Sequence record: OZ035763.1
DNA: 40,327 nucleotides
From: Teseptimavirus PDP351P2
Strand: one strand, 5' to 3'
Shown: one piece after another, positions 848 through 40,327 of the stretch
Position numbering within the stretch: position 1 is the stretch's first letter
How the letters are laid out: each line of letters opens with the position of its first letter
Translations under genes and position numbers: made by a program
Notes under the pieces: generated by a model
What the model saw: the letters and a program-made list of their open reading frames with translations, nothing else
Databases searched by the model: none
What the model was told of the DNA's origin: nothing

Positions 848-1330
848 GTGTCTACTCAATCCAATCGTAATGCGCTCGTAGTGGCGCAACTGAAAGGAGA
901 CTTCGTAGCGTTTTTGTTCGTCTTATGGAAGGCTCTGAACTTACCTGTACCAACTAAGTGTCAGATTGACATGGCTAAGGTACTGGCGAATGGAGACAAC
1001 AAGAAGTTCATCCTACAGGCTTTCCGTGGTATCGGTAAGTCATTCATCACATGTGCGTTCGTTGTGTGGTCCTTATGGAGAGACCCTCAGTTGAAGATAC
1101 TCATTGTATCAGCCTCTAAGGAACGTGCAGACGCTAACTCCATCTTTATTAAGAACATCATTGACCTGCTGCCGTTTCTCAGCGAGTTGAAGCCAAGACC
1201 CGGACAGCGTGACTCTGTGATTAGTTTCGACGTAGGTCCAGCTAAGCCTGACCACTCTCCTAGTGTAAAATCGGTAGGTATCACTGGTCAGTTAACTGGT
1301 AGCCGTGCTGACATTATTATTGCGGACGAT
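848..1330 (+). CDS. 19: terminase large subunit, exon 1 (codons 1-161)
   Basis: [19 protein letters not shown]... matches recalled T7 gp19 N-terminus; ATPase motif GIGKSF; frame ends ...IIIADD then GAA TAA. Confidence 0.9.
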
Positions 1331-2166
1331 GAATAACCATGTCGTCCTTAAACCCATCTAAACAGGGAAACCCGGAGCCTAACATGGTATACGGCAATCC
1401 TGTGCTAAATGAGACAGCCATAAAGAGCCTTATAGGCTCCCTAAGCGTCTCTAAATGCCAAACGACTAAGTAGTAGGGCCAAGTGGCTCGAAACGGTGGG
1501 AGAGCATTTACGGATGCTCTAAGATATAGTCTCGTCTATGGTGAGAAGCCATAGCACCATTTATTACGTAACACATAAGGAGTCTAACATGACCACTATG
1601 AAGAAAACTCGATATGAAGTAGGTTCAATCCATGAGTCCCCTAAAGGTCCGCTCAAGGTCCTCGAGTACATTCCGGGATATAAGGACCGCTCAACAGGTA
1701 AAAAAGTACATCCTCGCGTAGTAATTCGTATGATGAACACAGGGACTGTGCTCAACGTTCAAACCACGAATATACCAGATGGTAAGTTTGAGGACTATCG
1801 ACGTCCCACAGTTTACGGCATTGGGTATATAGGGTCTTCCATTAAAATCACCGCTAGAGGGACATTCATTCGGCGTGTGTATGACCTATGGGCCAACATG
1901 CTTAAGCGCGTGGTTCATGAGTATCAGGGAGTATCCGTGGACCCAAGATGGCTCAACTTTACGAATTTCTTGGCGACTATTCCTGATGTTAAGGGATATG
2001 CTGCGTGGGAGCGTGGTGAGGATGTTCATCTGGATAAAGACCTAGCTGGGAATAAACGATACTCATTGGAGAACTGTGCGTTCATTCCAGCTAAAGACAA
2101 CATTCGAGAGTCTTCGTTACGTAGGTGGCGTAAGAAATAACGAGCTTACGTTAAGATAATTATTCG
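1331..2166 (+). mobile_element. putative group I self-splicing intron interrupting gene 19
   Basis: Removing 836 bp restores a continuous 586-codon frame (ADD|VEIPSN as in T7 gp19); exon ends in T, insert ends in G; intron 1341-1347 GTCGTCC pairs with exon 1324-1330 GGACGAT giving a U-G wobble at the 5' splice site; core-like GACTAAG (1464-1470) and AAGATATAGTC (1521-1531). Confidence 0.75.
1589..2140 (+). CDS. intron-encoded putative homing endonuclease, 183 aa, degenerate HNH-like C-terminal motif
   Basis: ORF inside the insert with own SD (AAGGAG 8 nt upstream of ATG 1589); C-terminus VHLDKDLAGNKRYSLENCAFIPAKDN resembles an HNH motif; track ORF begins at upstream ATG 1538. Confidence 0.55.
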   Translation: MTTMKKTRYEVGSIHESPKGPLKVLEYIPGYKDRSTGKKVHPRVVIRMMNTGTVLNVQTTNIPDGKFEDYRRPTVYGIGYIGSSIKITARGTFIRRVYDLWANMLKRVVHEYQGVSVDPRWLNFTNFLATIPDVKGYAAWERGEDVHLDKDLAGNKRYSLENCAFIPAKDNIRESSLRRWRKK

Positions 2167-3444
2167 GTGGAAATTCCATCTAACAGTGCAACTATGGGTG
2201 CCCGTGAGAAGCTATGGACTCTCGTTCAGGAGTTCGCTGCGTTACTTAAACCGCTGCCTTCCTCTCGCGTTATCTACCTTGGTACGCCTCAGACTGAGAT
2301 GACTCTCTATAAGGAACTTGAGGATAACCGTGGGTATACCACTATCATCTGGCCCGCTCTGTACCCAAGGACTCGTGAAGAGAACCTATATTACGCACAG
2401 CGCCTTGCTCCTATGCTGCGTGCTGAGTACGATGAGAACCCTGAGGCACTCGCTGGGACTCCTACTGACCCTGTGCGCTTTGACCGTGATGACCTTCGTG
2501 AGCGTGAGTTGGAATACGGTAAGGCTGGCTTCACACTACAGTTCATGCTTAACCCGAATCTGAGTGATGCCGAGAAGTACCCTCTGAGGCTCCGTGACGC
2601 TATCGTAGCGGCCTTAGACTTAGAGAAGGCCCCAATGCATTACCAGTGGCTTCCGAACCGTCAGAACATCATTGAGGACCTTCCTAACGTTGGTCTTAAG
2701 GGTGATGACCTTCATACTTACCACGATTGCTCCAACAACTCTGGTCAGTACCAACAGAAGATTCTGGTCATTGACCCTAGTGGTCGCGGTAAGGACGAAA
2801 CAGGTTACGCTGTACTGTACACCCTGAACGGTTACATCTACCTTATGGAAGCTGGAGGTTTCCGTGATGGCTACTCCGATAAGACCCTTGAGTTGCTCGC
2901 TAAGAAAGCCAAGCAATGGGGAGTCCAGACGGTTGTCTATGAGAGTAACTTCGGTGACGGTATGTTCGGTAAGGTATTCAGTCCTATCCTTCTTAAACAC
3001 CACAACTGTGCTATGGAAGAGATTCGTGCTCGTGGTATGAAGGAAATGCGTATTTGTGATACCCTTGAGCCAGTCATGCAGACTCACCGCCTTGTCATTC
3101 GTGATGAGGTCATTAGGGCCGACTATCAGTCCGCTCGTGACGTAGACGGTAAGCATGACGTTAAGTATTCACTGTTCTACCAGATGACCCGTATCACTCG
3201 TGAGAAAGGTGCTCTGGCTCATGATGACCGATTGGATGCCCTTGCGTTAGGCATTGAGTATCTCCGTGAGTCCATGCAGTTGGATTCCGTTAAGGTAGAA
3301 GGTGAAGTGCTTGCTGACTTCCTTGAGGAGCACATGATGCGCCCTACGGTAGCTGCTACGCATATCATTGAGATGTCTGTGGGAGGAGTTGATGTGTACT
3401 CTGAGGACGATGAGGGATACGGTACGTCTTTCATTGAGTGGTGA
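2167..3444 (+). CDS. 19: terminase large subunit, exon 2 (codons 162-586)
   Basis: Frame resumes GTG GAA ATT ([17 protein letters not shown]...), collinear with recalled T7 gp19 to the C-terminus ...GYGTSFIEW. Confidence 0.9.
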
Positions 3445-3481: not shown

Positions 3482-3925
3482 ATGCTAAGTAAGAAGAAGT
3501 ATGTAGTCGATAAGGAGACTGGCTGCTGGAACTTTAAGGGTTGTAAGACGAAGAGTGGCTATGGTCGTCTCCGTGTAAATGGAGTCCATTGGATGGCCCA
3601 CAGGTATTCCCTGAGTTGTCATCTAGGCAGACCGATAGCTGACGGAATGGTTGTGATGCACCTGTGCGATAACCCATCGTGTGTTAACCCTGAGCATCTT
3701 AAGGAAGGGACTCAGAAGGAGAACATAGAGGATTGTATATCAAAAGGTAGGGCGATAAAGGCTACCGGTAAACGTGATGTGTCGAGAAGAGACCCTAGCG
3801 AGGAGCGTAAGGCTATAGTTATACGGCGCTACCATAAAGGATGGACAGCAACGTCCATAGCGAGATACCATAAGCTCTCTGTAGCGTGGGTAAAGAGGGT
3901 CATCGAGGCTTACCTAAGTGATTGA
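3482..3925 (+). CDS. free-standing HNH homing endonuclease (HNH_3-like)
   Basis: Strong SD AAGGAGG; motifs GC..GYGR, HR, HLCDNPSCVNPEHL, GTQKEN; no counterpart at this position in T7. Confidence 0.85.
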   Translation: MLSKKKYVVDKETGCWNFKGCKTKSGYGRLRVNGVHWMAHRYSLSCHLGRPIADGMVVMHLCDNPSCVNPEHLKEGTQKENIEDCISKGRAIKATGKRDVSRRDPSEERKAIVIRRYHKGWTATSIARYHKLSVAWVKRVIEAYLSD

Positions 3926-5259: not shown

Positions 5260-5622
5260 ATGGCTATGTCTAACATGACTTACAACAACGTTTTCGACCA
5301 CGCTTACGAAATGCTGAAAGAAAACATTCGTTATGATGACATCCGCGACACTGATGACCTGCACGATGCTATTCACATGGCTGCCGATAGCGCCGTCCCG
5401 CACTACTACAGCGACATCTTCGGTGTAATGGCAAGCGAAGGTATTGACCTTGAGTTCGAAGACTCTGGTCTTATGCCGGACACCAAGGACGTAATCCGCA
5501 TCCTGCAAGCCCGCATCTATGAGCAACTTACGATTGACCTCTGGGAAGACGCTGAGGACTTACTGAACGAGTATCTTGATGAAGTCGAGGAAGATGAAGA
5601 ATACGAAGAGGACGAAGAGTAA
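5260..5622 (+). CDS. ocr: Ocr, anti-restriction DNA mimic (T7 gp0.3 homolog)
   Basis: [22 protein letters not shown]... with acidic C-terminal tail; matches recalled T7 Ocr. Confidence 0.95.
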
Positions 5623-5774
5623 TGGCTAACAATACGCAATACGGTCTGACCGCTCAAACTGTGCTGTTCTATAGCGACATGGTGCGCTGTGGGTTTGATT
5701 GGTCGCTCGCAATGGCACACCTTAAGGAACTGTACGAAAACAATAAGGCAATAGCTTTGGAGTCTGCTGAGTGA
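5622..5774 (+). CDS. 0.4: gp0.4 homolog, 50 aa (FtsZ inhibitor in T7)
   Basis: ATG overlaps ocr stop (TAATG); [25 protein letters not shown]... read manually; too short for the ORF track. Confidence 0.8.
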   Translation: MANNTQYGLTAQTVLFYSDMVRCGFDWSLAMAHLKELYENNKAIALESAE

Positions 5775-5825
5775 TAGGCTCAAGGTCGCTCAATACGAGT
5801 GGCCTTTATGATTATCACTTTACTT
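5775..5825 (+). promoter_or_regulatory. RNase III processing site R0.5-like
   Basis: GGCTCAAGG...GTGGCCTTTATGATT hairpin motif. Confidence 0.5.
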
Positions 5826-5834
5826 ACGGGAGTA

Positions 5835-5966
5835 ATGTATATGCTTACTATCGGTCTACTCACCGCTCTGGGTCTAGCTGTAGGCGCATCCTTTGGGAAG
5901 GCTTTAGGTGTAGCTGTAGGCTCTTACTTGGTCGCTTGTATCATCACGGGAGCACTACGCAAATGA
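5835..5966 (+). CDS. 0.5: gp0.5 homolog, small membrane peptide, 43 aa
   Basis: MYMLTIGLLTALGLAVGASFGKALGVAVGSY... read manually; hydrophobic. Confidence 0.7.
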   Translation: MYMLTIGLLTALGLAVGASFGKALGVAVGSYLVACIITGALRK

Positions 5967-6274
5967 TGAAACATTACGTTATGCCTATCCACACCAAGAA
6001 CGGCGCTACAGTTTGCACACCTGATGGGTTCGCAATGAAACAGCGTATCGAACGCCTTAAGCGTGAACTACGCATCAACCACCTGAAAACCAACTACGGT
6101 ATAGATGAATCAGTGTACCGTAAGATGTATAAGGCACAACATGGGGTCTGCGCCATATGCAAACAACCTGAAAGCATTGAAGGTAGGCAACTATGTGTTG
6201 ACCATTCGCACATTACAGGAGACGTAAGGGGGACTTCTGTGCTCAAACTGCAACAGAGGAATAGGTCTGCTTAA
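5963..6274 (+). CDS. 0.6: gene 0.6 N-terminus fused to an Endonuclease VII-like domain, interrupted by +1 frameshift at a G5 run (domain continues in +1 frame to 6329)
   Basis: MMKHYVMPIHTKNGATVCTPDGFAMKQRIERLKRELRIN matches recalled T7 gp0.6; then CAICK...VDHSHITGDVRG (EndoVII-like); +1 frame after GGGGG 6228-6232 reads LLCSNCNRGIGLLKD...YLTGKL. Confidence 0.7.
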   Translation: MMKHYVMPIHTKNGATVCTPDGFAMKQRIERLKRELRINHLKTNYGIDESVYRKMYKAQHGVCAICKQPESIEGRQLCVDHSHITGDVRGTSVLKLQQRNRSA

Positions 6275-6342
6275 AGACTCACCTGAACTACTTCGCAACG
6301 CTTTCCATTATTTAACTGGTAAACTCTGAAGGACAAACTGCA

Positions 6343-7422
6343 ATGAACATTATCGACATCATGAACGCTATCGACGCAATCAAAGCACTACCAATCTGTG
6401 AACTTGACAAGCGTCAGAGTATGCTTATCGACTTACTGGTTGAGATGGTAAACAGCGAGACATGCGATGGCGAGATAACCGAACTGAATCAGGCACTTGA
6501 GCGCCAAGACTGGTGGACTACCTTGAAGTGCCTCACGGCTGACGCAGGTTTCAAGGTGCTTGGTAATGGTCACTTCTCGGCTGCTTACAGTCACCCGTTG
6601 CTGCCCAACAGAGTGATTAAGGTGGGCTTTAAGAAAGAGGACTCAGGCGCTGCGTATGCCGCATTCTGCCGCATGTATCAGGGCCGCGCTGGTATCCCTA
6701 ACGTCTACGATGTACAGCGCCACGCTGGATGCTATACGGTTGTGCTCGATGCACTGAATGACTGCGAGAGTTACGATAACGATGAGCATTATAAATACGC
6801 TGAGATTGCAAGAGACATCATTGACTACGAATCAGATGAGCACGATGGGTTGACTGGATGGGATGGCGAGTTCGTCGAGACTTGTAAGCTAATCCACAAG
6901 TTCTTTGAGGGCATCGCTTCATTCGATATGCACAGCGGGAACATTATGTTCAGTGATGATGATGTGCCCTTCATTACCGACCCTGTATCGTTCTCACAGA
7001 AGAAAGATGGCGGCTCGTTCAGTATCGACCCCGAGGAACTCATCAAGGAAGTCGAGGAAGTCGCACGACAGAAAGAAATTGACCACGCTAAGGCCCGTAA
7101 AGCACGTCATGTGGGTCGATTGGAGGCGCGCAGATTCAAGCGCCGTAACCGTAAGGCACGCAAAGCACACCAAGCGAAGCACAAGAGAATGTGCGCACAG
7201 TGGCGTATGGCTGAGCGTCAAGAACGACGTAACCATGAGGTAGCTGTAGATGTACTGGGGAAGGACAATAACGCTATGCTCTGGGTTAATATGTTCGCTG
7301 GGGACTTTAAGGCGCTTGAGGAACGAATCGCAGCGCACTGGTTCCAAGCTGACCGGAAGGCTATCGCTAATGGTCTTCCGCTTAACATCGACAAGCAACT
7401 TGACGCAATGTTAATGGGCTGA
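6343..7422 (+). CDS. 0.7: protein kinase / host shutoff protein (T7 gp0.7 homolog)
   Basis: 359 aa, collinear with recalled T7 gp0.7. Confidence 0.95.
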
Positions 7423-7493: not shown

Positions 7494-10145
7494 ATGAACA
7501 CGATTAACATCGCTAAGAACGACTTCTCTGACATCGAACTGGCCGCTATCCCGTTTAATACTCTGGCTGACCATTACGGTGAGCGTTTAGCTCGCGAACA
7601 GTTGGCCCTTGAGCATGAGTCTTACGAAATGGGTGAAGCACGCTTCCGCAAGATGTTTGAGCGTCAACTTAAAGCTGGTGAGGTCGCAGATAACGCTGCC
7701 GCCAAGCCTCTTATCACTACCCTGCTCCCTAAGATGATTGCACGCATCAACGATTGGTTTGAGGAAGTGAAAGCTAAGCGAGGCAAGCGCCCGACAGCCT
7801 TCCAGTTCCTGCAAGAAATCAAGCCGGAGGCGGTAGCTTATAGCACCATTAAGACCACTCTGGCTTGTCTAACCAGTGCAGACAATACAACCGTTCAGGC
7901 AGTAGCCAGCGCAATCGGTCGAGCCATTGAGGATGAAGCTCGCTTCGGTCGAATCCGTGACCTTGAAGCTAAGCACTTCAAGAAAAACGTTGAGGAACAA
8001 CTTAACAAGCGTGTAGGTCACGTCTATAAGAAAGCATTCATGCAAGTTGTCGAGGCTGACATGCTCTCTAAGGGTCTACTTGGTGGCGAGGCGTGGTCTT
8101 CGTGGCATAAGGAAGACTCCATTCACGTTGGGGTGCGCTGCATCGAGATGCTCATTGAGTCCACCGGAATGGTTAGCTTACATCGTCAAAATGCTGGCGT
8201 AGTAGGGCAAGACTCTGAGACTATCGAACTCACACCGGAATACGCTGAGGCTATCGCAACCCGTGCAGGTGCGCTGGCTGGTATCTCTCCGATGTTCCAA
8301 CCTTGCGTAGTTCCTCCTAAGCCGTGGACTGGTATTACTGGTGGTGGCTATTGGGCTAACGGTCGTCGCCCTCTGGCACTTGTACGTACCCACAGCAAGA
8401 AAGCACTGATGCGCTACGAAGATGTTTACATGCCTGAGGTGTACAAAGCGATTAACATTGCGCAAAACACCGCATGGAAAATCAACAAGAAAGTCCTAGC
8501 GGTCGCCAACGTAATCACCAAGTGGAAGCACTGCCCGGTCGAGGACATCCCAGCGATTGAGCGTGAAGAACTCCCGATGAAACCGGAAGACATTGACACG
8601 AATCCTGAGGCTCTCACCGCGTGGAAACGTGCCGCTGCTGCTGTGTACCGTAAAGATAAGGCTCGCAAGTCTCGCCGTATAAGCCTTGAGTTCATGCTTG
8701 AGCAAGCCAATAAGTTCGCTAACCATAAGGCCATCTGGTTCCCTTACAACATGGACTGGCGCGGTCGTGTTTACGCTGTGTCAATGTTCAACCCGCAAGG
8801 TAACGACATGACCAAAGGTCTGCTGACGCTGGCGAAAGGTAAACCAATCGGTAAAGAAGGTTACTACTGGCTGAAAATCCACGGTGCAAACTGTGCAGGA
8901 GTCGATAAGGTTCCGTTCCCTGAGCGCATCAAGTTCATTGAGGACAACCACGAGAACATCATGGCTTGCGCTAAGTCTCCTCTGGAGAACACTTGGTGGG
9001 CTGAGCAAGATTCTCCATTCTGCTTCCTTGCGTTCTGCTTTGAGTACGCTGGGGTACAGCACCACGGCCTGAGCTACAACTGCTCTCTTCCACTGGCGTT
9101 CGATGGGTCTTGCTCTGGCATTCAGCACTTCTCCGCGATGCTTCTCGACGAGGTAGGTGGTCTTGCTGTTAACCTGCTGCCTAGTGCAACCGTTCAGGAC
9201 ATCTACGGGATTGTCGCTAAGAAAGTCAATGTGATTCTGCAAGAAGACGTAATCAACGGGACCGACAACGAAGTAGTCACCGTGACTGACGAGAACACTG
9301 GTGAAATCTCTGAGAAAGTCAAGCTGGGCACCAAGGCGCTGGCTGGTCAATGGCTGGCTCACGGTGTTACTCGCAGCGTGACTAAGCGTTCGGTCATGAC
9401 GCTGGCTTACGGGTCCAAAGAGTTCGGCTTCCGTCAACAAGTGCTGGAAGATACCATTCAGCCAGCTATTGATTCCGGTAAAGGTCTGATGTTCACTCAA
9501 CCGAATCAGGCTGCTGGTTACATGGCTAAACTAATTTGGGAAGCTGTTAGCGTCACGGTGGTGGCTGCGGTTGAGGCAATGAACTGGCTCAAGTCTGCTG
9601 CTAAGCTGCTGGCTGCTGAGGTCAAAGATAAGAAGACTGGAGAGATTCTTCGCAAGCGTTGCGCTGTACACTGGGTAACTCCTGATGGCTTCCCTGTATG
9701 GCAGGAATACAAGAAGCCTATTCAGACTCGCTTGAACCTGATGTTCCTCGGTCAGTTCCGTCTACAACCGACCATTAACACCAACAAGGATAGCGAGATT
9801 GATGCACACAAGCAGGAGTCCGGTATAGCTCCTAACTTTGTGCATAGTCAAGATGGTAGCCACCTGCGTAAGACTGTAGTTTGGGCACACGAGAAGTACG
9901 GAATCGAATCGTTTGCACTGATTCACGACTCCTTCGGGACCATTCCGGCTGACGCTGCCAACCTGTTCAAAGCTGTGCGCGAAACTATGGTCGACACCTA
10001 TGAGTCTTGTGATGTACTGGCTGACTTCTACGACCAGTTCGCTGACCAGTTGCATGAGTCTCAATTGGATAAAATGCCAGCACTTCCGGCTAAGGGTAAC
10101 TTGAATCTACAAGACATCCTTAAGTCAGACTTCGCGTTTGCGTGA
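7494..10145 (+). CDS. 1: single-subunit DNA-dependent RNA polymerase (T7 RNAP homolog)
   Basis: 883 aa, MNTINIAKNDFSDIELAAIPFNTLADHYGERLAREQLALEHESYEMGEARF...; catalytic motifs DGSCSGIQH and HDSFGT. Confidence 0.98.
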   Translation: MNTINIAKNDFSDIELAAIPFNTLADHYGERLAREQLALEHESYEMGEARFRKMFERQLKAGEVADNAAAKPLITTLLPKMIARINDWFEEVKAKRGKRPTAFQFLQEIKPEAVAYSTIKTTLACLTSADNTTVQAVASAIGRAIEDEARFGRIRDLEAKHFKKNVEEQLNKRVGHVYKKAFMQVVEADMLSKGLLGGEAWSSWHKEDSIHVGVRCIEMLIESTGMVSLHRQNAGVVGQDSETIELTPEYAEAIATRAGALAGISPMFQPCVVPPKPWTGITGGGYWANGRRPLALVRTHSKKALMRYEDVYMPEVYKAINIAQNTAWKINKKVLAVANVITKWKHCPVEDIPAIEREELPMKPEDIDTNPEALTAWKRAAAAVYRKDKARKSRRISLEFMLEQANKFANHKAIWFPYNMDWRGRVYAVSMFNPQGNDMTKGLLTLAKGKPIGKEGYYWLKIHGANCAGVDKVPFPERIKFIEDNHENIMACAKSPLENTWWAEQDSPFCFLAFCFEYAGVQHHGLSYNCSLPLAFDGSCSGIQHFSAMLLDEVGGLAVNLLPSATVQDIYGIVAKKVNVILQEDVINGTDNEVVTVTDENTGEISEKVKLGTKALAGQWLAHGVTRSVTKRSVMTLAYGSKEFGFRQQVLEDTIQPAIDSGKGLMFTQPNQAAGYMAKLIWEAVSVTVVAAVEAMNWLKSAAKLLAAEVKDKKTGEILRKRCAVHWVTPDGFPVWQEYKKPIQTRLNLMFLGQFRLQPTINTNKDSEIDAHKQESGIAPNFVHSQDGSHLRKTVVWAHEKYGIESFALIHDSFGTIPADAANLFKAVRETMVDTYESCDVLADFYDQFADQLHESQLDKMPALPAKGNLNLQDILKSDFAFA

Positions 10146-10756: not shown

Positions 10757-11173
10757 ATGAAAGATGCCGACCGATTCAACGCAAAGACTGAACCATGCGG
10801 AGAATGTATTCGTTGGACTGGTCGAATCCAGCCTAACGGGTACGGTCAGTTCCGATTAAACGGTAAAACGCAGTATGCACACAGGGCAGCTTACACGCTG
10901 TTCCATGGAGAAATACCAGAAGGATACGTGGTTATGCACTCCTGCGATAACAGATGGTGCGTAAACCCAAGTCACCTAACTTTAGGGACACAAGCTGATA
11001 ACCTCATCGACATGACCAGAAAAGGTAGACACAGTAAGACTGTAATACCAAACGATCACATAGAGGGAATCAGGAACGATACCCGCTCTTCCTACGTAAT
11101 AGCTAGGGAGTGGGGAGTGAACCCATCAACTATCCAAAAGATTAAATCTGGAAAGAATAGGAGATTTGTATGA
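10757..11173 (+). CDS. free-standing HNH homing endonuclease (HNH_3-like) between phi1.3 and the ligase gene
   Basis: C..C...GYG..R, AHR, VVMHSCDNRWCVNPSHL, GTQADN; paralog of the ORF at 3482; in T7, phi1.3 is followed directly by gene 1.3. Confidence 0.85.
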   Translation: MKDADRFNAKTEPCGECIRWTGRIQPNGYGQFRLNGKTQYAHRAAYTLFHGEIPEGYVVMHSCDNRWCVNPSHLTLGTQADNLIDMTRKGRHSKTVIPNDHIEGIRNDTRSSYVIAREWGVNPSTIQKIKSGKNRRFV

Positions 11174-14152: not shown

Positions 14153-14608
14153 GTGGCTGGCGCATATGCTGCGCGTGGTATCCGAAAGGTCGGGACATTC
14201 CGTTCCGGCCTAGAAGATAAGGTCTCTAAGCAGCTAGAGGGTAAGGGCATTCAGTTCGACTATGAACTGTGGAAAATCCCTTACGTTGTCCCTGCGAGCA
14301 ACCATATGTATACTCCAGACTTCCTGCTGCCTAACGGAATCTTTATTGAAACCAAAGGTTTATGGGAGAGTGACGACCGAAAGAAACACTTATTGATTCG
14401 CGAACAGTTTCCTGAACTGGACATCCGTCTGGTGTTCTCAAGCTCACGCACCAAGCTGTACAAAGGGTCTCCGACCAGTTATGGTGAATGGTGCGAGAAG
14501 CACGGCATTCTGTTTGCTGACAAATTAATTCCTGTAGAATGGCTCAAAGAACCCAAAAAGGAGGTGCCATTTGACAAGCTGAAACAATCGAAGGGAGGAA
14601 AGAAATAA
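14153..14608 (+). CDS. 3: endonuclease I, Holliday junction resolvase (T7 gp3 homolog)
   Basis: 151 aa; ...GIRKVGTFRSGLEDKVSKQLE...PDFLLPNGIF.ETKG; apparent GTG start directly after 2.5 stop. Confidence 0.9.
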   Translation: MAGAYAARGIRKVGTFRSGLEDKVSKQLEGKGIQFDYELWKIPYVVPASNHMYTPDFLLPNGIFIETKGLWESDDRKKHLLIREQFPELDIRLVFSSSRTKLYKGSPTSYGEWCEKHGILFADKLIPVEWLKEPKKEVPFDKLKQSKGGKK

Positions 14609-15123: not shown

Positions 15124-17278
<2,155 letters not shown>

Positions 17279-17895: not shown

Positions 17896-18333
17896 ATGAA
17901 GATTTGTTCTAAGTGTGGGAATGGAAAACCGCTCACCGAGTTCGGAAAGGCTTCCCGCATGAAGGACGGTCTCAGAACTTGGTGTAAGGAGTGCGTCCGC
18001 AAAGATAACAATGCGAGATACCATAAGCACGATTCTGAGAAGCGAGAGGCTCACAGGTGGAGTTCGCGCAAATCTCAAATCAAGAAGTATGGCCTGACAG
18101 TAGAGCAGTACGAAGAACTATGGAACTCTCAGGAAGGAAAGTGTAAGATATGTGGTGACGCTATAATGGCACACTCATCTGAGAGGCATAAGGTAGCTTG
18201 TATTGACCACGACCATTTGACTTTGAAGGTTCGTGGACTTCTATGTTGGCACTGCAATATTGGCTTAGGTAAATTCTTCGATTCTACAGATAGGTTGGAG
18301 AATGCCATAAGGTATCTTAAAGGAGAACTCTAA
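17896..18333 (+). CDS. Endonuclease VII-like (Endonuclease_7 family) protein with N-terminal Cys cluster, at the gene 4.7 position, 145 aa
   Basis: CSKCGNGKP...CKEC; KYGLTVEQYEELWNSQEGKCKICGD...ACIDHDHLTLKVRGLLCWHCNIGLGKF...YLKGEL; track ORF 17770..18333 is an upstream extension. Confidence 0.8.
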   Translation: MKICSKCGNGKPLTEFGKASRMKDGLRTWCKECVRKDNNARYHKHDSEKREAHRWSSRKSQIKKYGLTVEQYEELWNSQEGKCKICGDAIMAHSSERHKVACIDHDHLTLKVRGLLCWHCNIGLGKFFDSTDRLENAIRYLKGEL

Positions 18334-20291
18334 TGATTGTCTCAGACATTGAATCAAACGGTCTACTTGAGACCACTACCAAATTTCACTGTGCGGTTAT
18401 CTATGACTACAGTACAGGAGAGTATACCAACTATCGTCCCACAGACTTTAGTAAATACCTTGACGCATTAGAGGCTGAGGTTTCAAAGGGAGGACTGATA
18501 GTAGGGCATAACTTCACTAAATTTGATATCCCCGCGTTGACAAAACTTGCTAAGTTACAATTGAACCGAGAGTTCCACATTCCCCGTGAGAACTGTATCG
18601 ACACCCTTGTGCTGTCACGTTTGATTCACTCTAACCTAAAGGACACCGATATGGGTCTTCTGCGTTCCGGTAAGTTACCCGGCAAACGCTTTGGGTCTCA
18701 CGCTTTGGAGGCGTGGGGTTATCGCTTAGGCGAAATGAAAGGTGAATACAAAGACGACTTTAAGCGTATGCTTGAAGAGCAAGGTGAAGAATACGTTGAC
18801 GGAATGGAGTGGTGGAACTTCAACGAAGAGATGATGGACTATAACGTTCAGGACGTTGTGGTCACTAAGGCTCTCCTTGAGAAGCTACTCTCTGACAAAC
18901 ATTACTTCCCTCCTGAGATTGACTTTACGGACGTAGGTTACACTACGTTCTGGTCAGAATCCCTTGAGGCCGTTGACGTTGAACATCGCGCTGCATGGCT
19001 ACTCGCTAAGCAAGAGCGCAATGGATTCCCGTTTGACACGAAAGCAATCGAAGAGTTGTACGTAGAGTTAGCCGCTCGACGCTCTGAGTTGCTCCGTAAA
19101 TTGACCGAAACGTTCGGCTCGTGGTATCAGCCTAAAGGTGGCACCGAAATGTTCTGCCATCCGAGGACCGGTAAGCCACTACCTAAATACCCTCGCATTA
19201 AGACACCTAAAGTTGGTGGTATCTTTAAGAAGCCTAAGAACAAGGCACAGCGAGAGGGCCGTGAGCCTTGCGAACTGGATACCCGCGAGTACGTTGCTGG
19301 TGCTCCTTATACGCCAGTTGAGCACGTGGTGTTTAACCCTTCGTCTCGTGACCACATTCAGAAGAAACTCCAAGAGGCTGGGTGGGTCCCCACGAAGTAC
19401 ACCGATAAGGGTGCTCCTGTGGTGGACGATGAGGTACTCGAAGGAGTACGTGTAGATGACCCTGAGAAGCAAGCTGCTATCGACCTCATTAAAGAGTACC
19501 TGATGATTCAGAAGAGAATCGGACAGTCTGCTGAGGGAGACAAGGCATGGCTTCGTTACGTTGCTGAGGATGGTAAGATTCATGGTTCTGTTAACCCTAA
19601 TGGAGCAGTTACTGGTCGTGCGACCCATGCGTTCCCCAACCTTGCGCAAATTCCGGGTGTACGTTCTCCTTATGGAGAGCAGTGTCGCGCTGCTTTTGGC
19701 GCTGAGCACCATTTGGATGGACTGACTGGTAAGCCTTGGGTTCAGGCTGGTATCGACGCATCCGGTCTGGAGCTACGCTGCTTAGCCCACTTCATGGCTC
19801 GCTTTGATAACGGTGAGTATGCTCACGAGATTCTTAATGGCGACATCCACACTAAGAACCAGATGGCTGCTGAACTGCCTACCCGTGATAACGCTAAGAC
19901 GTTCATCTATGGGTTCCTTTATGGTGCTGGTGACGAGAAGATTGGGCAGATTGTTGGCGCTGGTAAAGAGCGCGGTAAGGAACTCAAGAAGAAATTCCTT
20001 GAGAACACCCCAGCGATTGCAGCACTCCGAGAGTCTATCCAACAGACACTTGTCGAGTCCTCTCAGTGGGTAGCTGGTGAACAGCAAGTCAAGTGGAAAC
20101 GCCGCTGGATTAAAGGTCTGGATGGTCGTAAGGTACACGTTCGTAGTCCTCACGCTGCCTTGAATACCCTACTGCAATCTGCTGGTGCTCTCATCTGCAA
20201 ACTGTGGATTATCAAGACCGAAGAGATGCTCGTAGAGAAAGGCTTGAAGCACGGCTGGGATGGGGACTTTGCGTACATGGCATGGGTGCAT
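18333..20291 (+). CDS. 5: DNA polymerase, exon 1 (codons 1-653)
   Basis: [13 protein letters not shown]...collinear with recalled T7 gp5 up to ...FAYMAWVH; track ORF runs into the intron to 20315. Confidence 0.92.
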
Positions 20292-20892
20292 AAACTATTT
20301 CATTGTGCACATTAAATCTGGTGAACTCGGTGAAACCCTAATGGGGCAATACCGAGCCAAGCCATAGGGAGGATATATGAGAGGCAAGAAGTTAATTCTT
20401 GAGGCCACTGAGACTGGCTGTATCATCCCTACGTCACACAAACTTAATGCCGATGGTTATTTCAGAAAGAAAACCAATGGCGTCTTAGAGATGTATCACA
20501 GAACGGTGTGGAAGGAGCATAACGGAGAAATACCTGAGGGCTTCGAGATAGACCATAAGTGTCGCAATAGGGCTTGCTGTAATATAGAGCATTTACAGAT
20601 GCTTGAAGGTACAGCCCACACTGTTAAGACCAACCGTGAACGCTACGCAGACAGAAAGGAAACAGCTAGGGAATACTGGCTGGAGACTGGATGTACCGGC
20701 CTAGCACTAGGTGAGAAGTTTGGTGTGTCGTTCTCTTCTGCTTGTAAGTGGATTAGAGAATGGAAGGCGTAGAGACTATCCGAAAGGAGTAGGGCCGAGG
20801 GTGAGACTCCCTCGTAACCCGAAGCGCCAGACAGTCAACTCAAAGACTGATGATATAGTCCGACACTCCTAGTAATAGGAGAATACAGAAAG
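20292..20892 (+). mobile_element. group I intron in DNA polymerase gene 5
   Basis: Removing 601 bp restores a 704-codon gp5 frame (WVH|DEIQVGCRTEE); exon ends in T, intron ends in G; intron GTGCAC (20305-20310) pairs with exon GTGCAT (20286-20291) giving U-G at the splice site; GATATAGTCC core-like element at 20853-20862. Confidence 0.8.
20377..20772 (+). CDS. intron-encoded HNH homing endonuclease, 131 aa
   Basis: SD GGGAGG; motifs YHRTVW, EIDHKCRNRACCNIEHL, H-T. Confidence 0.8.
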   Translation: MRGKKLILEATETGCIIPTSHKLNADGYFRKKTNGVLEMYHRTVWKEHNGEIPEGFEIDHKCRNRACCNIEHLQMLEGTAHTVKTNRERYADRKETAREYWLETGCTGLALGEKFGVSFSSACKWIREWKA

Positions 20893-21048
20893 GATGAAAT
20901 ACAAGTAGGTTGCCGTACCGAAGAGATTGCTCAGGTGGTCATTGAGACCGCACAAGAAGCAATGCGCTGGGTTGGAGACCACTGGAACTTCCGGTGTCTT
21001 CTGGATACCGAAGGTAAGATGGGTCCTAACTGGGCCGTATGTCATTGA
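20893..21048 (+). CDS. 5: DNA polymerase, exon 2 (codons 654-704)
   Basis: DEIQVGCRTEEIAQVVIETAQEAMRWVGDHWNFRCLLDTEGKMGPNWAVCH matches the recalled T7 gp5 C-terminus. Confidence 0.9.
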   Translation, partial: DEIQVGCRTEEIAQVVIETAQEAMRWVGDHWNFRCLLDTEGKMGPNWAVCH

Positions 21049-38412: not shown

Positions 38413-40089
38413 ATGGCTAACGCAATTAAAACAGTTTTGACTTACCAGTTAGATGGCTCCAATCGTGATTTTAATATCCCGTTTGAGTATCTAGCCCGTA
38501 AGTTCGTAGTGGTAACTCTTATTGGTGTAGACCGAAAGGTCCTTACGATTAATACAGACTATCGCTTTGCTACGCGTACTACCATCTCACTGACCAAGGC
38601 TTGGGGTCCAGCGGATGGCTATACTACCATCGAGTTACGTCGAGTAACCTCCACAACCGACCGCTTGGTTGACTTTACGGACGGCTCAATCCTCCGTGCG
38701 TATGACCTTAACGTCGCTCAGATTCAAACGATGCATGTAGCAGAAGAGGCCCGTGACCTAACTGCCGATACTATCGGTGTCAATAATGATGGTCACTTGG
38801 ATGCGCGTGGTCGTCGAATTGTGAACCTAGCGAACGCCGTGGATGACCGTGACGCTGTTCCGCTTGGTCAACTAAAGACGATGAACCAGAGCTCTTGGCA
38901 AGCTCGCAATGAGGCTCTACAGTTCCGTAATGAGGCTGAGACTTTCAGAAATCAAGCGGAGGGCTTTAAGAACGAGTCCAGTACCAACGCTACGAACACA
39001 AAGCAGTGGCGTGATGAGGCTAAGGGGTTCCGAGATGAAGCTGAGCAGTTCAAGAATACGGCTGGTCAATATGCCACATCTGCTGGTAACTCTGCGGCTG
39101 CTGCTCATCAATCTGAGGTAAATGCTGGGAACTCTGCTACAGCATCTACTAACTCTGCGCATTTGGCAGAACAACACGCAGACCGTGCGGAACGCGAAGC
39201 AGACAAGCTGGGGAATTTTAACGGACTAGCTGGCGCAATTGACAGGGTGGATGGAACCAATGTGTACTGGAAAGGAGGTATCCATGCGAACGGACGCCTT
39301 TACCTTACCTCAGATGGTTTTGACTGTGGTCAGTATCAACAGTTCTTTGGTGGTGGCACTAATAGTTATTCTATCATGGAGTGGGGAGATGATAACGGAT
39401 GGCTGATGCATGTTCAACGTAGAGAGGGGACAACAGCGATAGGCGGTAACATCCAGTTAGTAGTAAACGGACAGATCATCACCCAAGGTGGAGCCATGAC
39501 CGGTCAGCTAAAATTGCAGAATGGGCATGTTCTTCAATTAGAGTCCGCATCCGACAAGGCTCACTATATTCTATCTAAAGATGGTAACAGGAATAACTGG
39601 TACATTGGTAGAGGGTCAGATAACAACAATGACTGTACCTTCCACTCCTATGTACATGGTACGACCTTAACACTCAAGCAGGACTATGCAGTAGTTAACA
39701 AACACTTCCACGTAGGTCAGGCCGTTGTGTCCACTGATGGTAATATTCAAGGTACTAAGTGGGGAGGTAAGTGGCTTGATGTTTACCTAAACGATACTTA
39801 CGTTAAGAAGACAATGGCTTGGACTCAAGTATGGGCTGCTGATAGTGGTAGGTTCCTGCCAGGAGGTTCTCAGACTGGTACTCTCCCACAGGACTTGCGA
39901 TTCCGCAACATATGGATTAGGACCAAACACAACTATTGGAACTTCTTCCGAACTGGTCCTGATGGTATCTACTTCCTTTCAGCCGAGGGCGGTTGGCTAA
40001 AATTCCAGATACACTCTAATGGCAGGGTATTTAAGAACATAGAGGATAGAGATGCGCCTCCAACAGCAATAGCCGTAGAGGACGTGTAA
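38413..40089 (+). CDS. 17: tail fiber protein (T7 gp17 homolog) with divergent C-terminal tip
   Basis: 558 aa; N-terminal two thirds near-identical to recalled T7 gp17; distal roughly 100 aa differ. Confidence 0.95.
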   Translation: MANAIKTVLTYQLDGSNRDFNIPFEYLARKFVVVTLIGVDRKVLTINTDYRFATRTTISLTKAWGPADGYTTIELRRVTSTTDRLVDFTDGSILRAYDLNVAQIQTMHVAEEARDLTADTIGVNNDGHLDARGRRIVNLANAVDDRDAVPLGQLKTMNQSSWQARNEALQFRNEAETFRNQAEGFKNESSTNATNTKQWRDEAKGFRDEAEQFKNTAGQYATSAGNSAAAAHQSEVNAGNSATASTNSAHLAEQHADRAEREADKLGNFNGLAGAIDRVDGTNVYWKGGIHANGRLYLTSDGFDCGQYQQFFGGGTNSYSIMEWGDDNGWLMHVQRREGTTAIGGNIQLVVNGQIITQGGAMTGQLKLQNGHVLQLESASDKAHYILSKDGNRNNWYIGRGSDNNNDCTFHSYVHGTTLTLKQDYAVVNKHFHVGQAVVSTDGNIQGTKWGGKWLDVYLNDTYVKKTMAWTQVWAADSGRFLPGGSQTGTLPQDLRFRNIWIRTKHNYWNFFRTGPDGIYFLSAEGGWLKFQIHSNGRVFKNIEDRDAPPTAIAVEDV

Positions 40090-40147: not shown

Positions 40148-40327
40148 ATGTTGTCATTGGACTTTAACAACGAACTAATTAAAGCGGCACCGATTGTAGG
40201 TACAGGTGTTGCGGATGTTAGTGCAAGACTGTTCTTCGGGCTAAGCCTTAATGAATGGTTCTATGTGGCTGCTATCGCCTACACAGTGGTTCAGATTGGT
40301 GCCAAGGTAGTCGATAAGATGATTGAC
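40148..40327 (+). CDS. 17.5: holin (T7 gp17.5 homolog), 3' end truncated by the window edge
   Basis: MLSLDFNNELIKAAPIVGTGVADVSARLFFGLSLNEWFYVAAIAYTVVQIGAKVVDKMID; remainder wraps to window positions 1-20. Confidence 0.85.
   Translation, partial: MLSLDFNNELIKAAPIVGTGVADVSARLFFGLSLNEWFYVAAIAYTVVQIGAKVVDKMID

Follow-up and report, generated by a model that had tools for sequence, protein, structure and literature searches.

Known relatives of the endonuclease and of gene 0.6

The use of the Endonuclease VII (Endo VII) motif by homing endonucleases was established with F-CphI, and the roles assigned below to the catalytic residues of this motif are taken from that work (PMC6083498). The C61S and N62D mutants of T4 Endo VII are inactive, as are the corresponding mutants of F-CphI (PMC6083498). 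T4 Endo VII (gp49; 1EN7, 1E7D, 2QNC) is a dimeric Holliday-junction resolvase, with the catalytic domain at the N-terminus and a dimerisation domain after it. Hpy99I (3FC3) is a type II restriction enzyme that belongs to a cellular restriction-modification system. Genes named 'endonuclease VII' are also carried by the Autographiviridae, e.g., WX1 UXQ90238, HZP2 YP_009820202 and gene 13.5 of phiYeO3-12; these genes and the F-CphI family were compared as the closest systems to the gene described here.

In T7, gene 0.6 is represented by the pair 0.6A/0.6B, where the annotation of 0.6B continues 0.6A in the +1 frame (joined CDS of 337 nt). Gp0.6 has been reported to target MreB (PMC6965359), and deletions between short repeats have been documented in the dispensable 0.3-0.7 region of T7 (PMC8923235). 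The life cycle of homing endonucleases has been described as a succession of invasion, fixation, degeneration and loss (PMC13405050).

A gene 0.6 N-terminus fused to an interrupted Endonuclease VII domain

The stretch of DNA analysed here, referred to as the window, is the 40,327-nt sequence of Teseptimavirus PDP351P2 (OZ035763.1). It is a circularly permuted genome of a T7-like phage of the Teseptimavirus group, and its nearest database relatives are ~92% identical. In the early region (Table 1), an ORF of 103 codons (P0001) extends in frame 0 from the ATG at 5963, which overlaps the stop codon of gene 0.5 (ATGA), to the TAA at 6272-6274. The first-pass annotation had recognised the N-terminus of T7 gp0.6 in the ORF that starts at 5963, and the comparison agrees: residues 1-39 are identical to T7 gp0.6A at 38 of 39 positions and to the 0.6 protein of CQ615 at all 39; phrog_8393 (the 0.6 family) matches residues 1-45 with an E value of 1.4e-25; and P0001 has a precomputed assignment to PF26851 (Phage_T7_0_6), homology with the N-terminal module of T7 Gp0.6 being evident.

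Table 1. Features of the early region and of the fused gene, with positions in the window.
Feature	Position	Strand	Basis or remark
ocr	5260-5622		early-gene order
gene 0.4	5622-5774		early-gene order
gene 0.5-like small membrane protein ORF	5799..5966	+	upstream neighbour; gene order as in L046, L048
gene 0.6 codons 1-39 (MMKHYVMPIHTKNGATVCTPDGFAMKQRIERLKRELRIN)	5963..6079	+	T7 gp0.6A 38/39 identical; phrog_8393; PF26851
deletion junction, sole leftover CAACC copy	6076..6080	+	alignment with L016, 258 bp absent
Endo VII catalytic domain, first half, H40-G90, in frame with 0.6	6080..6232	+	PF02945 positions 3-54
C63/C66 (CAIC)	6149-6160	+	alignment to T4 Endo VII
D80-H81-S82-H83	6200-6211	+	alignment to T4 Endo VII
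R89	6227-6229	+	alignment to T4 Endo VII
G5 run, G4→G5 expansion within Arg-Gly codons	6228..6232	+	L016/WX1 comparison
+1-frame endonuclease remainder, begins GGA 6231-6233, stop TGA 6327-6329	6231..6329	+	repaired protein PF02945 3-81/82
out-of-frame tail of frame-0 product (TSVLKLQQRNRSA) with stop TAA 6272-6274	6233..6274	+	
second zinc-ligand pair, +1 frame	TGC 6240-6242 and TGC 6249-6251	+	
metal-binding Asn, +1 frame	AAC 6252-6254	+	
kinase gene 0.7 (serine/threonine protein kinase)	6343..7422	+	downstream neighbour
RNA polymerase	7494-10145		early-gene order

The interrupted Endo VII-like domain that had been noticed behind the 0.6 part is also present. Residues 40-90 of the frame-0 product correspond to positions 3-54 of the 82 in the Pfam Endonuclease_7 model (PF02945; 45.2 bits, E 9e-12), and when one G is deleted the reading gives a 121-aa protein that covers positions 3-81 (85.9 bits, E 1.8e-24); both scores exceed the gathering score of 23.6 bits. 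Matches were also obtained with phrog_2633 and other Endo VII families, and the PDB sequence matches were Hpy99I and T4 Endo VII. The break had been placed at GGGGG (6228-6232), with the +1 frame completing the motif, and these coordinates proved exact: the +1-frame protein reads GLLCSNCNRGIGLLKD...YLTGKL from 6231 and ends at 6327-6329. At the break the frame-0 peptide is DVRGTSVLK, and that of the shifted product is DVRGLLCSNCNR. The +1-frame part is 100% identical in amino acids to both L016 and WX1. In its own frame this remainder is closed on the 5' side by a TAA (6225-6227), after which there is no ATG, GTG or TTG; therefore, independent initiation was ruled out and the remainder can be reached only by a +1 shift within 6228-6271. 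A search of Rfam at the gathering threshold gave no match in the region.

In the alignment with T4 Endo VII, counterparts of C23, C26, D40, H41, H43 and R54 are present in frame 0, whereas those of the zinc ligands C58 and C61 and of N62, a catalytic metal ligand, are missing. The Endo VII constellation (CX2-4C, D-H-x-H, Arg, CX2C, Asn) is therefore incomplete in any one frame, with the CSNC-N segment lying in the +1 frame, and becomes complete only after removing one G. Since the 103-aa product is devoid of the equivalents of C58, C61 and N62, it should have no nuclease activity, judging from the mutagenesis of T4 Endo VII and F-CphI.

A search of 5.8 billion proteins and clusters revealed an intact homologue of 151 residues (P0002; 96% identical). 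Its AlphaFold model (pLDDT 88.8) shows a β-rich N-terminal CxxC...CxxC region (residues 5-34) followed by two long helices (35-75) and, in the ββα core, strands at 108-111 (CVDH) and 118-122 (VRGLL); the extra G of the window falls in the second β-strand of this ββα-Me core. With Foldseek, the best match of the model was 3FC3 (E 8e-5), and 2QNF, 1E7L and 1EN7 were matched with probabilities of 0.99-1.0; the global TM-scores are low (0.25-0.30) because only the catalytic half aligns. The predicted structure thus has the ββα-Me fold of the Endo VII type, resembling Endo VII and Hpy99I. In the N-terminal segment Pfam gave only sub-threshold zinc-finger-like matches (Stc1 with 17.5 bits, the cut-off being 24.8), for which reason it is described here simply as a CxxC...CxxC zinc-ribbon-like region; its cysteines are conserved in at least 90% of the family.

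The repaired window copy has the arrangement CX2C...DH-H...R...CX2C-N found in F-CphI and in the Autographiviridae genes, and like them it belongs to a free-standing family, patchily distributed and inserted at more than one position in close relatives, whose catalytic domain is C-terminal to a separate N-terminal region. Unlike them, the window copy has lost the N-terminal 69 residues together with its own start codon and ribosome-binding site, is joined to gene 0.6, and goes out of frame ahead of the second CX2C-N. With T4 Endo VII it shares the zinc-binding ββα-Me core, where C23, C26, D40, H41, H43, R54, C58, C61 and N62 align; however, the window domain is C-terminal and the dimerisation part is absent, and T7-like phages have a resolvase of their own, the gene 3 endonuclease I (window 14153-14605). 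Hpy99I is the best PDB match of the catalytic half in both sequence and fold, including the C-terminal helix (...GLLKDSPELLRNAFHYL), in contrast with its different N-terminal domains and its role in restriction.

Origin of the fusion

The closest relative of the locus is the contig that carries P0002 (L016, a Logan assembly of SRR24556873), whose DNA is 95% identical to the window. Here gene 0.6 (178-318, 46 codons) and an intact endonuclease gene (346-801, 151 codons) are separate and in the same frame. The two genes are also separate in CQ615, WX1, WX2, L046, L047 and L048; in the Escherichia phage CQ615 and the Yersinia phages WX1 and WX2, a 46-codon 0.6 is followed by endonuclease VII, directly 5' of gene 0.7. 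Compared with L016, the window lacks exactly 258 bp, which comprise codons 40-46 and the stop codon of 0.6, the spacer, and codons 1-69 of the endonuclease gene. Two direct repeats, CAACC, are found in L016 at 291 and 549, i.e., exactly 258 bp apart. With the deletion, the zinc-ribbon region is gone and so is most of the linker. The frame is kept and the end point coincides exactly with the boundary of the Pfam catalytic domain, which could be due to chance (1 in 3 for the frame) or to selection.

At the break site L016 reads GTA AGG GGA CTT, with four Gs and in frame, and the window reads GTAAGGGGGACTT, with five. The expectation that one fewer G would give VRGLLC in frame is thereby borne out, since L016 has exactly one G fewer (AGG GGA CTT), and the comparison with homologous loci, which had been set beforehand as a check, is answered by L016 with separate genes and G4. 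In WX1 the site is GTA AGG GGG CTT, also in frame; with WX1 alone the change could be read as an A inserted after G5, a reading that was dropped since the closer relative L016 shows G4 followed by A. Base by base, the alignments demonstrate the two lesions and their exact ancestral states, as well as the non-conservation of the shift described below.

In the retained domain the window and L016 differ by nine synonymous and two nonsynonymous changes, and downstream of the shift by three and none, respectively. The reading frame has no defect other than the extra G, and the frameshift lesion is, by this comparison, young. A frame that is still translated, or an artefact, would look the same as a young lesion.

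No other fusion of 0.6 to an endonuclease was found among the 5.8 billion proteins and clusters, where the 103-aa product of the window is a singleton, and neither the fusion junction nor the shifted site has an exact match in viral contigs. Several candidates were discarded. A scan for the G4 and G5 alleles returned one viral and 26 metagenome loci, none homologous by blastn, which are chance matches; a match of the junction in an alphaproteobacterial MAG was alike over only 20 nt, with 1.08 chance matches expected in genome contigs; and N30, C5, NC-A and 04922B, which cover ~50% of the span, carry ordinary T7-type 0.6A/0.6B. Homologues of 83-97 aa that consist of the catalytic domain only do exist (P0045, P0061, P0096), hence the loss of the zinc ribbon by itself need not abolish activity.

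Distribution of the endonuclease gene

Sporadic presence and more than one insertion site, as is characteristic of free-standing homing endonucleases, were found for this gene. It is present in WX1, WX2, CQ615, HZP2, HZ2R8, L016 and in members of Teetrevirus and Przondovirus, and absent from T7, JeanTinguely, N30, NC-A and 04922B. It lies downstream of 0.6 in L016, WX1 and CQ615, and upstream of 0.6 in HZP2 and HZ2R8; in the contexts examined, all close homologues sit immediately upstream of the kinase gene 0.7, and homologues of ~40% identity are located elsewhere in T7-like genomes, e.g., as gene 13.5 or in the vicinity of the terminase. The family therefore shows, in sequence and distribution, the hallmarks of a free-standing homing endonuclease, with cleavage and homing as putative activities. 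The window is rich in elements of this kind, with ORF-bearing group I introns in the terminase and DNA polymerase genes and further HNH-like ORFs.

Conservation of the reading frame

The first-pass annotation had proposed, as one possibility, a nuclease regulated by frameshifting, and had drawn an analogy with T7 0.6B. The two loci do have N-terminal 39 residues identical at 38 positions and a second product in the +1 frame, and 0.6B is likewise annotated as a continuation in that frame. However, the +1 continuation of T7 opens after approximately codon 45 of 0.6A, and the window keeps codons 1-39 only, so the T7 shift site belongs to the deleted part. The 3' region of 0.6A and the 0.6B coding sequence, which such a pair would retain, are both absent; the downstream frame of the window encodes Endo VII, unrelated to 0.6B; the 0.6 gene of this clade is a simple 46-codon gene; and the phages with a true 0.6B (N30, NC-A, 04922B) have no endonuclease. 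That frameshifting of the 0.6A/0.6B type operates in the window is thus a notion with a negligible probability, which the comparison of sequences has refuted.

A programmed shift of another kind was examined in 12 copies of the endonuclease compared base by base, from a total of ~27 close homologues. Nine of the 12 are in frame (WX1, WX2, HZP2, HZ2R8, ESh12, Klebsiella phage 31, vB8388, VR4605 and GXKP01) and three are broken (the window, CQ615 and KpV92). In CQ615 the same run is shortened from G4 to G3 (AGG G-T CTT) in comparison with its intact, near-identical relatives L046 and L047; in KpV92 the next AGGGG run, ten codons downstream, is expanded from G4 to G5 (AGG GGG CAT versus AGG GGC ATA in GXKP01). 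In all the other records with at least 60% identity, tblastn aligned the gene in one full-length piece, and the four Logan copies are intact; altogether, ~24 of the 27 close homologues are in frame. The window would need a +1 shift, CQ615 a -1 shift, and KpV92 a +1 shift at a different site; therefore, no recoding signal is conserved, and neither the two-frame arrangement nor its site is maintained, contrary to what would be expected of programmed +1 frameshifting.

A recognised shift-prone site accompanied by a stimulator was not detected either. The site GUA AGG GGG ACU has no stop codon, and no stimulatory RNA structure was found downstream of it, the fold being no better than that of shuffled sequences (z 0.49). 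AGGGGG resembles the Shine-Dalgarno (SD)-like stimulator of prfB, which precedes the shift site of that gene, CUU UGA, at the proper spacing; in the window the string overlaps the shift site rather than being spaced upstream of it, and it is found in frame in the intact WX1, hence it simply encodes Arg-Gly. AGG is a rare codon in this phage, with 5.6% of the Arg codons, and GGG and GGA are also rare. From these comparisons a regulated frameshift of the nuclease is not supported, and ordinary gene decay would be the explanation instead: most homologues are in frame, and the other broken copies differ in the direction or the site of the change.

A weaker form of this idea is that the G5 allele is functional, either because infrequent +1 slippage at AGG GGG A restores VRGLLC and yields a small and tolerable dose of active 0.6::nuclease, or because the G-run acts as a reversible switch. 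In the first case the peptidyl-tRNA-Arg would re-pair from AGG to GGG, and GGA would then be read. Both frames are open over 6228-6271, and shifting at AGG-G would recreate the canonical motif exactly; the codons involved are, as mentioned, rare; and indels in G-runs recur in three of ~27 copies. Precedents are also available, such as the 'savior indel' of the herpesvirus thymidine kinase, where indels in a G-run are accompanied by low-level frameshifting (PMC5009743), and a +1-nt mutation of rpoB that is intrinsically suppressed at a level of 5% (PMC7022156). Against these points, the homologues do not maintain the shifted state, and no single shift would restore all three broken copies; there is no stop codon in the A site and no known slippery pattern; the intact WX1 has AGGGGG in frame; no structure follows; and the fusion is unique to the window genome. 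We consider this reading improbable, and equally so a contingency switch in which slippage at the AGG GGN runs of the catalytic motif would turn the nuclease off (as in the window, CQ615 and KpV92) and potentially on again, while the off state may leak a trace of active fusion protein by +1 slippage. A leaky or reversible arrangement of this sort is conceivable, although without positive support. It is also conceivable that some spontaneous +1 read-through takes place, since tRNA-Arg(CCU) could pair anew with the +1-frame GGG.

Mutation or sequencing error

The main alternative explanation of the extra G is an error of homopolymer sequencing or polishing, in which case the phage would have G4 and an intact, in-frame fusion of 121 aa between Gp0.6(1-39) and the Endo VII catalytic domain. 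Homopolymer miscalls are a classic error of several sequencing platforms. The difference from the nearest relative, L016, is purely one of homopolymer length; secondary lesions are absent, as are nonsynonymous changes downstream of the shift; and similar changes are present in two other deposited genomes. All three indels are changes of homopolymer length, a signature of replication slippage and of sequencing error alike.

Reading frames were therefore audited by comparing the window with all the proteins of JeanTinguely and with the DNA polymerase of CQ615, and CQ615 and KpV92 were also audited. The window has 75 G/C runs of at least four, among them only three G5 runs and none longer; despite these, the genes shared with JeanTinguely or CQ615 are frame-intact, including both intron-split genes, i.e., the two interrupted window genes, which are explained by group I introns. 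No other frame-split gene was found among the audited shared genes of the window, CQ615 or KpV92. If errors fell uniformly on G/C runs, at a rate based on three indels in ~27 copies of a gene with approximately two such runs, the audited parts of the three genomes together should contain ~11 more errors, and none was seen (P ~1.6e-5); the random-error model is rejected by this for the three genomes jointly, with the caveats that essential genes were possibly corrected by hand by the submitters and that the audit spans shared genes only. The exact 103-aa product is also listed from both NCBI and Logan sources, a listing that is not independent proof.

The absence of any other frame-split gene in the three genomes favours real, tolerated mutations over random sequencing error. 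The sequencing error that had been put forward at first is thus possible for a single record, but it is disfavoured by the concentration of indels in this gene, and we regard it as unlikely; the extra G is probably a real mutation. Persistence of such mutations would be favoured by a gene that appears to be dispensable and, in the window, already truncated. Should the error nevertheless be the explanation, the 258-bp deletion, as aligned with L016, is still real, and the hidden in-frame fusion could be active, given that there are homologues with the catalytic domain only.

Probable degeneration of the endonuclease gene

The reading that we favour, with a probability of roughly 0.7, is that the locus contains a pseudogenised copy of a free-standing, zinc-containing, homing-endonuclease-like gene of the Endo VII type (ββα-Me), in the degeneration phase and fused to gene 0.6. 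The ancestor would have had the organization of L016, WX1, WX2 and the relatives of CQ615, with a 46-codon 0.6, a separate 151-codon endonuclease gene in the same frame, and then 0.7; in the ancestral endonuclease, a basic helical linker would have connected a CxxC...CxxC zinc ribbon at the N-terminus to the Endo VII catalytic domain at the C-terminus. The 258 bp would have been lost by slippage from one CAACC repeat to the other, or by illegitimate recombination of the two, and with them the end of 0.6, the ribosome-binding region and the first 69 codons of the endonuclease, so that codons 1-39 of 0.6 were joined in frame to the catalytic domain. The other lesion, before or after the deletion, would be the change to G5 of the G4 run that the codons AGG GGA, for Arg-Gly, form in the catalytic core. 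Standard translation would then give the 103-aa product, in which the conserved N-terminal module of Gp0.6 is followed by half of a nuclease domain and by 13 nonsense residues, and we infer that whatever function remains resides in the N-terminal part derived from Gp0.6. The first-pass annotation had envisaged a homing endonuclease that was inserted in place of the 3' part of 0.6 and then decayed; the decay holds, whereas the fusion is better attributed to the deletion between CAACC repeats than to an insertion.

This course of events agrees with the homing endonuclease life cycle (PMC13405050), in that a dispensable selfish gene has acquired inactivating indels and a partial deletion, and with the repeat-mediated deletions of the T7 early region, whose end points also lie in a short direct repeat. 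With respect to these precedents, the only oddity is the coincidental in-frame fusion with the neighbour gene.

The window gene would be a degenerate additional member of a known family, and as such it probably adds little that is new. The chief use of these results is in annotation, where the ORF should be described as a fusion of gene 0.6 with an endonuclease VII pseudogene; neither 'novel fusion nuclease' nor 'recoded gene' would be an appropriate label. A leaky or reversible G-run switch, if it existed, would allow a phage to keep a potentially harmful nuclease in check by simple means; no data presented here require such a switch. The locus offers a base-resolved snapshot of two steps of degeneration, i.e., a repeat-mediated deletion and homopolymer slippage, and the Arg-Gly codons of the catalytic motif appear as a recurrent indel hotspot in three independent phages.

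Introns and selfish nuclease genes

Selfish nuclease genes are unusually abundant in the genome of PDP351P2 (see table), whose genes were audited with the protein set of JeanTinguely, a related phage that lacks the endonuclease VII gene. The terminase large-subunit gene is split by an insert of ~830 bp, with exon 1 ending at about 1333 (...IIIADD) and exon 2 beginning at about 2167, at (V) followed by ten residues not shown here; positions 1291-1554 of the insert are a full-length match to the group I intron model (Rfam RF00028, E 3e-11) with 49 bits, the gathering score of this model being 50. The ORF within this insert gave no hit in a Pfam search, and its counterparts in the Salmonella phages Vi06, CHRF_10027 and Sal_R1S (88-90% identical) are named 'HNH endonuclease'. 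In the DNA polymerase gene, an insert of about 600 bp follows residue 653 and also matches RF00028 (44.9 bits, E 6.6e-10); the ORF inside it is 87% identical to one annotated within the JeanTinguely polymerase gene.

Features located in the window
Feature	Position	Intron	Search
Split terminase large-subunit gene	848-3444	about 1291-2166	
200-aa ORF inside terminase insert	1538-2140		
HNH/homing-endonuclease-like ORF	3482-3922		tblastn, JeanTinguely 'putative homing endonuclease' proteins
HNH/homing-endonuclease-like ORF	about 10805-11041		as above
HNH/homing-endonuclease-like ORF	about 15154-15552		as above
Interrupted DNA polymerase gene	18333-21045	about 20282-20892	
Homing-endonuclease-like ORF within polymerase insert	20377-20769		
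Tail-fibre gene	38413-40080		

Endonuclease VII gene and its surroundings in related phages

Single-base indels in a G run are found in the copies of the endonuclease gene carried by the phages CQ615 (L001/L049, 2055-2190) and KpV92 (L014/L050, 1019-1145), and truncated 'endonuclease VII' proteins of 129 and 134 aa, respectively, are annotated in them. The remaining 'putative homing endonuclease' ORFs of CQ615 are likewise short (90 and 76 aa). In the window, the endonuclease VII-type remnant fused to gene 0.6 holds the only in-frame AGG-GGN dicodon noted; none occurs in 18 major conserved genes (8,397 codons), an absence that is not significant, since codon frequencies predict about 2.

Several records of related phages carry wrong or missing product names. 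The intact endonuclease VII of WX2 is called 'protein kinase', that of HZ2R8 (L013, about 701-1144) has no annotation at all, and the gene 0.7 kinase of WX1 is called 'DNA-directed RNA polymerase'. In Klebsiella phage vB8388 (L011) two ORFs (1203-1349, and from 1372) are annotated for the gene 0.7 kinase within 1203-1838, which suggests that another dispensable early gene is disrupted there.

Record ends and tail fibre

At one end of the record the holin-like ORF (40148-40327) is cut off by the window boundary, and at the other the terminase small subunit begins at position 30; therefore, the record is a circularly permuted assembly, and its first base is not the physical end of the genome. 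Most structural genes are 92-98% identical to those of JeanTinguely, the closest overall relative, whereas the tail-fibre protein is only about 42% identical, which suggests the exchange of a host-range module.
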